A stretch of DNA of 64,000 bases, taken from IMG/VR virus record IMGVR_UViG_3300026430_000073, positions 1-64,000 of that record; one strand, 5' to 3'. The notes under the pieces are model-generated. The model was not told the origin of the DNA. It did no database searches and saw only the letters and a program-made list of their open reading frames with translations. The DNA is from an uncultured virus (IMG/VR IMGVR_UViG_3300026430_000073) (lineage: Duplodnaviria > Heunggongvirae > Uroviricota > Caudoviricetes). Below, piece by piece: positions 26,688 to 30,643 of the stretch. A program made the translations under genes and the position numbers. Within the stretch, counting starts at the first letter, position 1. Every line of letters begins with the position of its first letter.

Positions 26688-26692
26688 TTTAC

Positions 26693-26757
26693 GACCCTTG
26701 CCAGGCAGCGTATTACGCAGCGCGCTTAACTAGCCGTAGATCGGCTGGAGGGTCACC
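26693..26757 (+). ncRNA. Short tRNA-like RNA (acceptor-like stem + T-arm-like hairpin, no anticodon arm)
   Basis: GACCCTT/GAGGGTC stem then A-CC; TAGCCG-TAGAT-CGGCTG hairpin directly before the 3' strand. Confidence 0.5.
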
Positions 26758-26763
26758 CTTTGT

Positions 26764-26925: not shown

Positions 26926-26933
26926 AATCAGAA

Positions 26934-27100
26934 GCTCGGTACTCCTATGCCAAGCCTAAGATCCTAGCCCCGTGCCCTCCCTACCCGAGGCGCTATAGCT
27001 GCACGTAAGGCTTTGTAGTTACATTAGACCCTACGACGACGAGGAGCCAGTCTGTTGGCTTTGAGTTATCAGGGAAGCGCCAGCGCCGCACATGCCGAGC
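26934..27100 (+). ncRNA. Unknown multi-stem structured RNA
   Basis: Nested pairings GCTCGGTA/TGCCGAGC, CTCCT/AGGAG, AAGCCT/AGGCTT, CGTGC/GCACG; no ORF. Confidence 0.55.
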
Positions 27101-27227
27101 ACTGTTCTAGCATGGTCAGACACTAGCTAGTACCGCGCAAACCTGCCTGAAGCGATATGAAGGCACCTTGGCCACTAGGGTAATTAGTGGCAAGACCTGG
27201 GGAATGTCCTCCCCAGGCGCTTATTCT

Positions 27228-27376
27228 AACTCTGTAGCTCATTGGTAGAGCGTCCTCACCTTCCTGAAAAGGATTGCAGGTTCGAGTCCTGCTTGGCCGG
27301 CACTATCGGCCAATGGCGGAATTGGTAGACGCAAACATGAGGAAGGCAGCGGGTTCGATTCCCTGCTAGAGTTACC
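27228..27376 (+). ncRNA. Double-elbow tRNA-like RNA 1 (permuted class-II tRNA body in place of the anticodon loop)
   Basis: Outer acceptor AACTCTG/TAGAGTT with D and T arms; inner variable arm, T arm, TTGGCCG/CGGCCAA acceptor and Leu-type D arm, in permuted order. Confidence 0.85.
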
Positions 27377-27384
27377 TATTCAAT

Positions 27385-27534
27385 AGCACTGTAGCTCAGT
27401 TTGGTAGAGCGTCGTCCCTCCCTTAAGGTCGCCGGTTCGAGTCCGGCATCGCCCGTATGGGTGATTAGCTCAGTTGGTTAGAGCGTAAGGCCAACTTGAC
27501 GAAGGTCACTGGTTCAATTCCAGTCAGTGCTCCC
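27385..27534 (+). ncRNA. Double-elbow tRNA-like RNA 2 (permuted class-I tRNA body in place of the anticodon loop)
   Basis: Outer AGCACTG/CAGTGCT; inner CCTTA/TAAGG stem, GCCGG-TTCGAGT-CCGGC, ATCGCCC-GTAT-GGGTGAT, D arm. Confidence 0.9.
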
Positions 27535-27552
27535 TATTCAGAGAAACTTGTG

Positions 27553-27835: not shown

Positions 27836-27947
27836 GCTTCCTTAACTCAGTTGGTAGAGTGCCGTCTTCGAGCCTCCTGGCCCCTTAAATGGGGCAGGCT
27901 CACCATACCTGGCGGAAGTCCGAAGTTCGATTCTTCGAGGAAGCCCC
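27836..27947 (+). ncRNA. tRNA-scaffold RNA 3 (hairpin in place of the anticodon loop)
   Basis: GCTTCCT/AGGAAGC acceptor, D arm, CCGTC/GGCGG stem, CGAAG-TTCGATT-CTTCG T arm; ends C-CC-TATT. Confidence 0.85.
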
Positions 27948-27953
27948 TATTCT

Positions 27954-28040
27954 CGTTCCTTAGCTCAGCTGGTTAGAGCGTCGGCCCCTTAGCTAAAAGA
28001 CACGCCGAAGGTCCGTGGTTCAAATCCACGAGGAACGCCC
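27954..28040 (+). ncRNA. tRNA-scaffold RNA 4 (18-nt loop in place of the anticodon loop)
   Basis: CGTTCCT/AGGAACG, TCGGC/GCCGA stem, CGTGG-TTCAAAT-CCACG; ends C-CC-TATT. Confidence 0.85.
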
Positions 28041-28070
28041 TATTCATCCAACCACCCGCAGAGATCTTTC

Positions 28071-28796: not shown

Positions 28797-28803
28797 GTTT
28801 TAT

Positions 28804-28929
28804 CTCCGCCTAGCTCAGATGGTAGAGCGCACTCTTTCGGTTCGATTCCGAACATGCCCATCCCTTCGGGGTTCGGCGTGGATCAGGTACATGAGTGAGG
28901 TCCGTGTCTCGAAAACACGGGTGGAGACC
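28804..28929 (+). ncRNA. tRNA-scaffold RNA 5 (degenerate double-elbow)
   Basis: CTCCGCC/GGTGGAG, D arm, CACTC/GAGTG; insert contains TTCGG-TTCGATT-CCGAA and CATGCC/GGCGTG capped by a UUCG hairpin; ends A-CC-TATT. Confidence 0.8.
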
Positions 28930-28933
28930 TATT

Positions 28934-29083
28934 TTCCAACGTGGTATCGCTAAAGTGTCGCAATCGTCCAAAACGCTACATCAGGACATCGCCCAGCAAT
29001 GGGGAAAATTTAGGTACGACCCGAAATCCTAACTGCGACCGCTCAACAATACAATAGGCGATACACTGGGTATGTTGGAGACC
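28934..29083 (+). ncRNA. Unknown structured RNA with tRNA-like 3' end
   Basis: TTCCAACGT/ATGTTGGAG, GTATCGC/GCGATAC, GTCGCA/TGCGAC stems; ends A-CC-TATT. Confidence 0.6.
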
Positions 29084-29100
29084 TATTAGGAGAGAGTGCA

Positions 29101-29511: not shown

Positions 29512-29518
29512 CGATCAT

Positions 29519-29649
29519 CCCTGGCTAGCGGCTGGCGCTACTCCGGCGAACTGCGATACGATATACTGGAAAGGGTTTCATGCCTGACGCACTTTCCCGT
29601 GTCCGTCGTTTATTAGTTGGTGGGGAGTTCAAATCTCCCGCTCGGGGCC
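29519..29649 (+). ncRNA. tRNA-like RNA with canonical T arm and long internal region
   Basis: GGGAG-TTCAAAT-CTCCC, imperfect acceptor CCCTGGC/GCTCGGG, G-CC-T end, followed by a terminator. Confidence 0.55.
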
Positions 29650-29653
29650 TAAA

Positions 29654-29738: not shown

Positions 29739-30119
29739 ATGGCCTTTTGGACAGCGCAGATTAGCCAGTGGAGACTGGTGCAGGATAGGGGAATCATCCT
29801 GGCCGATACCACGGTAAAGTCAGCTGTGGAGTACGAGTTTCTCGCACCCACTTGGACGATGGTCATGAACCACAAGGGCGAGCTCATAACCGACGAGATG
29901 TATACCGAACAATACCTAGCGCTATTACGCGATCGGTACGGTAGTTGGCGTCGGTCTTTCTACGATCTGCTCGAATTGGGACGAGACAGTGAGGTGGCCA
30001 TTGCGTGCTATTGTAGTCCCGGTAAGTTCTGTCACCGACACTTAAGCATAAACGTTTTACGGAAGATCGCTGAGAAGGCGAACTTACCGTTTGAATATAA
30101 AGGCGAGATTACAAGATGA
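29739..30119 (+). CDS. DUF488-like protein
   Basis: LAPTW, Y...Y...L, ACYC....FCHRH motifs; GGAG RBS before ATG 29739. Confidence 0.7.
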   Translation: MAFWTAQISQWRLVQDRGIILADTTVKSAVEYEFLAPTWTMVMNHKGELITDEMYTEQYLALLRDRYGSWRRSFYDLLELGRDSEVAIACYCSPGKFCHRHLSINVLRKIAEKANLPFEYKGEITR

Positions 30120-30643
30120 GTAAGAAAACGGTCTCACAACCTCCCTTCAATCCGAAGGAGATGGTACAGAGCCTGCTGGCGCCATTCCACGCCGAACAGG
30201 AGTGGTTCGAGGAACAGTACAGAAGGGCAGCTCCTCCAGACGACATCTGGTTGCGTGACTGGAAGACTGTGGGGTTCTTCGTCCCACGTCAGACCGGCCG
30301 TACCAGAGCTTTGGCTCAGATCTTCAACCTGGTAGGTGAGGCGCTCTACATCGTACCGAACCTCAGGATCAAGAAGATGCTGATCCAGAACTGTGCGAAC
30401 GAGAACCCTGATTTCATCGGGTATCCCCGTGCAGAATTAGAAAGCGTTCGTGTGTGTACGCCATACGAAGTAAAGCGCTCGATCCTGCATCGGAAGAAAG
30501 GTCTGCCCGATCCTATTCCCCCAGCAAAGCTCATCATCGTCGACGATGCCAGTTACTTCTTCTGCAATATGAAGTATACGCAGTTCTACGAATGGCTGGC
30601 TCAACGCGGTGGTCGTGATCAAGTGATCCTTCGGGTCAACTGA
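30116..30643 (+). CDS. Small degenerate P-loop NTPase-like protein
   Basis: VPRQTGRT (Walker A-like, K to R) and IIVDDA (Walker B-like). Confidence 0.5.
   Translation: MSKKTVSQPPFNPKEMVQSLLAPFHAEQEWFEEQYRRAAPPDDIWLRDWKTVGFFVPRQTGRTRALAQIFNLVGEALYIVPNLRIKKMLIQNCANENPDFIGYPRAELESVRVCTPYEVKRSILHRKKGLPDPIPPAKLIIVDDASYFFCNMKYTQFYEWLAQRGGRDQVILRVN

Follow-up and report, generated by a model that had tools for sequence, protein, structure and literature searches.

The YrlA RNA (RF02553) contains a permuted tRNA module in which a T arm, a closed acceptor stem and a D element follow one another. A GG docks in its T loop, and the module is made for binding and not for decoding; it hangs on a Ro60-binding stem and is encoded beside the Ro60 gene, as the accessible parts of the sources describe it (PMC4201824; 10.1101/312249). 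RNA 3, which is encoded at 28804..28931 of the window analysed here (the opening 64,000 nucleotides of a virus contig that is 74,030 bases long and about 30% complete), has the same module order. However, its D stem is absent and only a GG strand is present, and the module hangs on a complete second tRNA body. RNA 3 obtained no score with RF02553 (cut-off 69). A TROVE/Ro60 gene was found in none of five related records, among them two cultured genomes and two records that are 98–100% complete, nor in the contig itself. The Ro-binding motif GNCGAAN0-1G is absent from RNA 3 and from its paralogue RNA 1 and has one match in the 3' part of the paralogue RNA 2 (27498). With no Ro60 gene in these records, no Ro motif and no Rfam score, RNA 3 is not a YrlA RNA, although its inner module would work in the manner of the YrlA tRNA domain.

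The valine tRNA-like structures of plant viruses (TLS-Val; for example, in TYMV) are likewise non-decoding viral tRNA mimics with A35-C36 and A73 or C73. They form the 3' end of a genomic RNA and are valylated; their acceptor is pseudoknotted and their anticodon loop has 7 nt, according to the accessible part of PMC9976931. In contrast, the RNA 3 family consists of free-standing genes of DNA phages with an insert of 18–109 nt in the loop. RNA 3 has both A35-C36 and A73, and its end reads CCTA, so that a CCA would need trimming and repair.

In Lak megaphages, tRNAs with “introns” that may encode a tRNA also combine a phage frame with a long conserved insert holding a T arm; in 20 rows of Table S6, the inner body has the normal tRNA order, with its T arm towards the 3' end of the insert, and the outer frames are Tyr, Thr, and others (PMC6784885, accessible part). 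The inner body of RNA 3, however, is permuted, with the T arm first. Permuted tRNA genes, in which the 3' half precedes the 5' half, occur in red algae and archaea, and engineered tRNA scaffolds carry a cargo in the anticodon loop for stable processing. Compared with these, RNA 3 is natural and phage-borne, and its permuted body is UUCG-capped and nested, with no sign of tRNA maturation. The species 1 and 2 RNAs of T4 (rnaC and rnaD) resemble RNA 3 as stable non-tRNA RNAs of 120–140 nt in a phage tRNA cluster (PMC9697503; PMC3014915, accessible parts); rnaC has one T arm, rnaD has none, and neither has a tRNA frame with a nested elbow. In the literature searched, which lay mostly outside subscription journals, we could not find a description of the two-elbow layout or of phage RNAs with A35-C36. 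Within that literature, the architecture and identity signature of RNA 3 are new to print, whereas the tRNA-mimic kind is known.

RNA 3 is a tRNA frame in which a 58-nt insert replaces the anticodon loop; all features described here lie on the plus strand. The 5' strand of the outer acceptor (28804..28810) pairs with 28920-28926 over 7 bp, one of them a G-U, and is followed by U8-A9 and the outer D arm with G18-G19 (28811..28828), whose stem is invariant in 7/7 aligned orthologues. The 5' strand of the outer anticodon stem (28830..28834) pairs with 28893-28897. The outer T arm (28903..28919) has the loop CTCGAAA, which is non-canonical here (U53-A61, C54, A60). The gene ends with the discriminator A73 and CCTA (28927..28931), which reads A-CC-TA rather than CCA. 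All cloverleaf stems (acceptor, D, anticodon and T) are present, but the 7-nt anticodon loop is not.

Within the insert, a single T precedes a canonical T arm (28836..28852) with the loop TTCGATT and G53-C61. An acceptor-like helix of 6 bp follows (28853..28880, with 28853-28858 paired to 28875-28880). It is capped and has no free CCA end; the cap is a UUCG hairpin (28862-28871) behind a 3x3 internal loop, and the UUCG loop and its closing pair are identical in 7/7 orthologues. The single strand GATCAGGTACAT (28881..28892) holds a D-loop remnant with GG at 28886-28887 and then positions 34-38 of the outer frame, among them A35-C36 (28889..28890), which is the valine identity pair in the accessible part of PMC9976931. 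A preliminary description of the locus had listed intact outer acceptor, D and anticodon stems and, in the insert, a canonical T arm, an acceptor-like helix, a TTCG hairpin and a GG strand; each of these parts was recovered in its place.

Neither ARAGORN nor Rfam made a call on RNA 3, and Rfam had no match at 28804 up to an E-value of 10. The orthologue in L259 scores 49.5 bits against the tRNA model (RF00005), and the relatives match only tRNA in Rfam. Gene finders overlook or mislabel such RNAs. Two other folds were rejected, namely an inner D stem GTG/CAT (pair probability 0.002) and a mini-tRNA made up of the outer 5' half and the inner T arm (only 2/7 pairs).

The contig encodes an S80 head protease, an HslV-type peptidase, NAMPT/PRPS, thymidylate kinase and thymidylate synthase. 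This gene set and a neighbour gene common to Noxifer, phiKZ-type and Psa21 phages place it with the phiKZ-like jumbo phages. Four tRNAs of the cluster are ordinary and have an encoded CCA (Ile, Tyr, Asn and Gln; ARAGORN), whereas five tRNA frames have enlarged anticodon loops (27228, 27385, 27836, 27954 and 28804), each followed by N-CCTATT. A search for sigma-70 promoters found none, against 3.1 expected.

Four of these frames are paralogues of RNA 3, and all four carry AC in register. RNA 1 (27228..27378) is a two-elbow RNA with a short inner D stem of 3 bp and AC at 27335-27336. RNA 2 (27385..27536) is a two-elbow RNA with a complete permuted inner body; its 37.7 bits against the YrlA model are the best score in the cluster and lie below the cut-off of 69. 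The same tRNA frame is found with a 44-nt hairpin insert at 27836..27949 and with an 18-nt loop at 27954..28042.

Further structured elements lie nearby. At 28933-29087, directly 3' of RNA 3, there is a structured element of 154 nt, which is bounded by an 11-nt repeat of the RNA 3 end (28923-28933 and 29077-29087) and is not present in the syntenic clusters L249 and L250. The tRNA-like RNA at 29517-29652 has a long irregular arm besides its T arm, and 131 nt of it are identical in L249 and L250. More structured non-coding stretches stand among the tRNAs at 26690-26762 and 26930-27225, with no Rfam match above the cut-off. At 30116-30643, a small P-loop-like protein with Walker A- and B-like motifs and no Pfam family is encoded; its gene adjoins the tRNA region in this phage group and in phiKZ-type phages and is the sole neighbour common beyond close relatives. 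As it also occurs in phiKZ-type phages without such RNAs, it is not counted as an RNA partner.

The fold of RNA 3 taken singly is unexceptional. The MFE fold equals the proposed fold, but its energy is not significant (z −1.61; 15/200 shuffles fold as well), and the outer anticodon stem has a pair probability of 0.48. Hence, the case rests on relatives. When the 58-nt insert was shuffled 20,000 times with its dinucleotides kept, 29 of the shuffles held a perfect T arm, six of them with G53-C61.

We aligned seven orthologues (RNA 3 and six from related uncultured jumbo phages) over 33 pairs, which gives 228 cells. Paired cells make up 99.6% (one is unpaired), and 17/33 pairs show two-sided change. 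None of 500 shuffles reached such a value, and slid registers were 30–48% paired. Covariation is strong in the outer stems, where two-sided change affects 5/7 acceptor pairs, 4/5 anticodon pairs (none broken) and 5/5 T pairs. It is thinner in the inner body (T stem 1/4 two-sided; helix 1/6 two-sided and 3/6 one-sided; none broken) because the inner T stem and helix vary less. Pairwise identity is 0.56 for the outer acceptor, 0.67 for the anticodon stem, 0.62 for the T arm and 0.92 for the D arm, against 0.89 for the inner T arm, 0.75 for the inner helix and 1.0 for the UUCG loop. Thus, what is preserved in the frame is its shape, and in the cargo its sequence. RNA 3 is real, conserved and under selection.

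Comparison with both paralogues and with the relatives supports the view that RNA 3 has the same permuted layout as RNAs 1 and 2. The inner D element of the relatives ranges from a full D arm through a 3-bp and a 2-bp D stem to the stemless GG strand of RNA 3. RNA 3 had been called “further evolved”, which holds in the sense of streamlining but not of decay, as the identities of the inner T arm and helix exceed the 0.56–0.67 of the outer acceptor, anticodon stem and T arm. The inner module is not decaying, and its conservation is higher than that of these outer parts.

The outer T loop sets this genome apart. The preliminary description assigned the canonical T loop to the inner body and recorded the non-canonical outer loop, which is indeed present, but overlooked the changed closing pair. 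In the other orthologues, the outer arm reads TTCRANY with G53-C61 in 6/6 cases, so the assignment fits this genome and not the family. Such features are rare: among 625 distinct 7-nt-loop tRNA frames of the analysed loci, C54 occurs in two and a non-G-C closing pair in nine. The altered arm still pairs 5/5. The odd loop is identical in the IMG/VR contigs L252, L255 and L262, which may not be independent, and no variant letter was found in the contigs of 4/4 RNA-library runs examined. It is not an assembly error.

As U55, C56, G57 and A58 are retained, the outer elbow may still form. The modification rules of TrmA and TruB are the basis for expecting a preference for the inner loop: as the outer loop lacks U54 and G53-C61, m5U54 and pseudouridine 55 are expected in the inner loop and not in the outer one. 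In its loop and closing pair, the outer T arm is the same as three anticodon arms of tRNA-Ser(CGA) from other loci, and a conversion from such an arm is possible; against it, T loops and anticodon loops are similar at the outset, and no donor was found in the contig.

Positions 34-38 are the last five bases of the insert, numbered backwards from the point where the 3' strand of the outer anticodon stem begins. In a first tally, A35-C36 was present in 31/32 frames from nine loci, and all four bases occurred at 34, 37 and 38. In the enlarged tally, it was present in 36/38 frames from 13 phage loci, or in 34/36 when two frames preselected by an AC-demanding pattern are left out. These 38 frames share ancestry and are not 38 independent events; at 60% identity, 12/14 insert clusters have AC. 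Elsewhere in the inserts, AC accounts for 4%, and any other dinucleotide at 14 other registers reaches at most 16/38. Ordinary 7-nt loops have AC at 35-36 in 24/360 cases. The exceptions are two frames (RTH11 4859 and L643 2881). Outside these lineages, A35-C36 is not clearly present in the two-elbow RNAs of L158 and of the L004 and L006 types. RNA 1, which is outside the parser's tally, also carries AC in register.

AC occurs with two-elbow inserts (24 frames) as well as with hairpin or 18-nt inserts (14 frames). Hence, the signature belongs to the frame, and as the latter inserts have no inner D arm, it is not a leftover of that arm. G45 is found in 35/38 frames. The valine identity elements are A35, C36 and A73, with G20 and G45 as minor ones (PMC9976931, accessible part). 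Taken with the tally, A35-C36 is the valine identity signature, held in register across a family of such RNAs in several jumbo phages. The earlier reading had seen the parts and the layout but had missed this fixed pair. The pair narrows an odd fold to one question, namely binding by valyl-tRNA synthetase (ValRS) or by a tRNA-Val nuclease.

BLAST with RNAs 1 and 2 led to Xanthomonas phage RTH11 and Burkholderia phage FLC9, two cultured phages with unannotated two-elbow RNAs, RNA 3-like ones included. BLAST of 28797-29095 against cultured phages gave seven records and nothing beyond short D-arm matches. Pattern scans of IMG/VR found orthologues in the syntenic clusters L249, L250 and L259 and more distant ones in L609, L610, L616, L612, L194, L156 (three) and L158. 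One pattern scan gave 13 matches, ten of the two-elbow type and three tandem tRNAs. Ten or more distinct phage contigs or genomes have the same layout, with two to six variants per phage; the known range of phages is a lower bound.

Other scans were negative within their scope. A metagenome scan with the inner motif gave 120 loci, among which the parser found no RNA 3 orthologue, and the 24 loci of a GTDB scan were, by eye, tandem tRNAs or chance matches, none of them nested. A scan for AC with two T loops yielded, among the matches listed, mostly tandem tRNAs, one partial frame (L556) and no new complete frame. Pattern scans over the whole records of RP12, D479, SNUABM_11, DT01, 201phi2-1 and five more showed no two-elbow RNAs, their five matches reading as tandem tRNAs or tRNA-like neighbours. 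None were seen either in KTN4, Psa21, Viktualia, Noxifer and AH06, where regions of 18 kb were covered. The distribution among jumbo phages is patchy, which fits an accessory host-interaction gene.

The stretch is present at full word share in all 24 soil RNA-library runs listed, and the sequence of RNA 3 is identical in the three IMG/VR contigs named above and in the contigs of four runs. The four runs examined contain long contigs (up to 43 kb) at flat depth (100–5,000). As such contigs may be DNA, the libraries cannot establish transcription; either the phage is very abundant or its DNA was carried over into the libraries. One run has an adapter tip at 28036, which hints weakly at a 3' end, and only at that of the neighbouring 27954..28042 element.

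We tentatively favour the reading that RNA 3 is a stable, non-decoding tRNA-Val mimic on a tRNA scaffold that would engage a host reader of tRNA-Val, with ValRS as the first candidate and a nuclease as the second. Host RNase P and 3' trimming would release it from the tRNA-cluster transcript like a tRNA. The 3' side of the former anticodon loop would stack on the stem and present A35-C36 to the host ValRS, which would read this pair and ignore position 34. The GG strand is predicted to dock in the inner T loop, as in YrlA, and the resulting second elbow may bind a second elbow-reading protein or a second copy of the enzyme. As the RNA cannot enter decoding, it would work by occupying or recruiting the enzyme during infection, in a takeover or counter-defence of translation. 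ValRS is ranked first because the pattern of fixed and free positions corresponds to its identity rule and because the phages encode no such synthetase (class I synthetase genes were found in 0/5 related phage records). ValRS also contacts the G19-C56 corner of tRNA, and T4 modifies the host ValRS. Outer stems that change freely yet stay paired, around a conserved cargo, are what a scaffold predicts. Absence of tRNA-Val from the carriers (0/58 ARAGORN calls, 11 loci) was rejected as support, as five phage regions without the RNAs also have 0/23.

Several points speak against valylation. The discriminators are mixed (A, C, T and G), many acceptor stems are bulged, and the lineage ends in CCTA. 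Efficient valylation is reported to need a regular acceptor helix, and the acceptor of RNA 3 has a G-U; the valylated plant-virus mimics covered by the accessible part of the same source all keep a 7-nt anticodon loop, which the RNA 3 family does not (PMC9976931). The 29517-29652 element ends in CCA in L249 and L250 and in CCTA in the window, so CCTA may simply be trimmed and repaired. Against the favoured reading, the benefit to the phage of engaging ValRS is not evident.

More broadly, and with similar reserve, these RNAs may be natural tRNA scaffolds of jumbo phages, in which A35-C36 would address one host enzyme and the anticodon loop would hold exchangeable cargos, including a permuted elbow. 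Such a device, made of RNA only, might tether or neutralise ValRS or a tRNA-Val nuclease in takeover or anti-defence, and in this genome its outer T arm would have been converted to a Ser(CGA)-like anticodon hairpin. If ValRS or a tRNA-Val nuclease binds, RNA 3 would be for bacteriophages what the valine tRNA mimics are for plant viruses. It would then represent an RNA-only tool in the contest between phage and host over tRNAs and a natural version of the tRNA-scaffold trick, and it could help to explain other stable RNAs encoded in phage tRNA clusters.

Alternatively, the outer frame could serve for processing and stability only, with the inner elbow as a YrlA-like effector and AC as a structural or processing motif unrelated to valine. 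The inner order of T arm, closed acceptor and D element is that of YrlA in the accessible part of 10.1101/312249, RNA 2 has sub-threshold YrlA scores, the cargo is conserved above the frame, and the acceptor ends look ill-suited to charging. We nevertheless regard this explanation as rather unlikely, given that the Ro60/TROVE gene is missing from the related records and from the partial contig, and that AC stands exactly at 35-36 although 14/38 frames have no inner elbow.

The RNAs could also be decoys for a host defence nuclease that cleaves tRNAs and prefers tRNA-Val, in which case A35-C36 and the two elbows would give avidity and spare the real tRNAs. This would account for the same signature, the location in a tRNA cluster, the patchy spread and the two to six variants per phage. 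Phage tRNAs have been proposed to offset tRNA-targeting defences (PMC7824862; PMC10264068, accessible parts), and retron Eco2 cleaves tRNA-Val among others. It does so, however, in the acceptor stem and on many tRNAs (PMC12916289, accessible part), and no nuclease that reads A35-C36 was found in the literature searched. Moreover, the free positions 34, 37 and 38 and the lost U33 would suit synthetase rules better than loop-cutting nucleases. We consider a decoy unlikely.

An intron is improbable. Removal of 51 nt after U33 would give a tRNA-Val(UAC) with the loop U32-U33-UAC-A37-U38 and an excised, circular permuted tRNA-like RNA. In RNA 3 and in the L259 orthologue, joining gives a fully canonical loop, A73 is present here, and the Lak phage tRNA inserts have been described as introns (PMC6784885, accessible part). 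Across the family, however, U33 is found in 20/38 frames and R37 in 24/38, and a canonical Y32-U33-R37 is restored in just 6/38. Hence, most frames could not decode even if spliced, and splicing is unlikely. At 58 nt, the insert is well below the size of group I and group II introns, and bacteria are not known to have the archaeal splicing endonuclease. L259 has U73, and the outer T loop is defective here. RNA ligase was found in 2/5 and RtcB in 1/5 related records, and no insert-skipping joint was present in the contigs of 4/4 RNA-library runs, although contigs drop rare forms.

That RNA 3 is a functionless, decaying product of recombination between tandem tRNA genes is highly improbable: a broken outer T loop in this genome, the lack of an encoded CCA and the weak folding z-score would agree with it, but one unpaired cell in 228, 17 two-sided changes, an altered T arm that pairs 5/5, the spread of the layout and the fixed AC speak against it, and the covariation has already largely refuted it.

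In addition to the favoured tRNA-Val mimics, the scans brought up other tRNA-like RNAs. Two further two-elbow families occur in gut-type contigs (L004, L235, L242, L399 and L457; L006, L064, L073, L109 and L115), both with near-invariant inner modules and variable outer frames. Vibrio phage D479 (L466 2908-4342) has at least five tRNA frames with 49–60-nt inserts that have in common a hairpin and a GCAAC-like motif; they lie near an RNA ligase gene and form a scaffold family of their own, which does not have A35-C36. In L643 (minus strand, about 2320-2450) and L647 (2960-3096; Psa21), an outer tRNA-like frame encloses a complete tRNA (Lys, Asn) in normal order. The 7-nt-loop tRNA frames in L641 (1899-1975), L642 (1573-1648) and L609 lack U33, have purines at 32-33 and are called Ser by ARAGORN; they are probably further non-decoding mimics. 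Finally, a scan for a D arm close to a T arm gave 74 loci (L391-L464). Most of the distinct matches are mini-tRNAs of 58–65 nt with acceptor, D and T arms and without an anticodon arm, which occur in many unrelated small phage contigs (e.g., L392, L397, L400, L411 and L443, near 594-654) and are matched as tRNA by Rfam.
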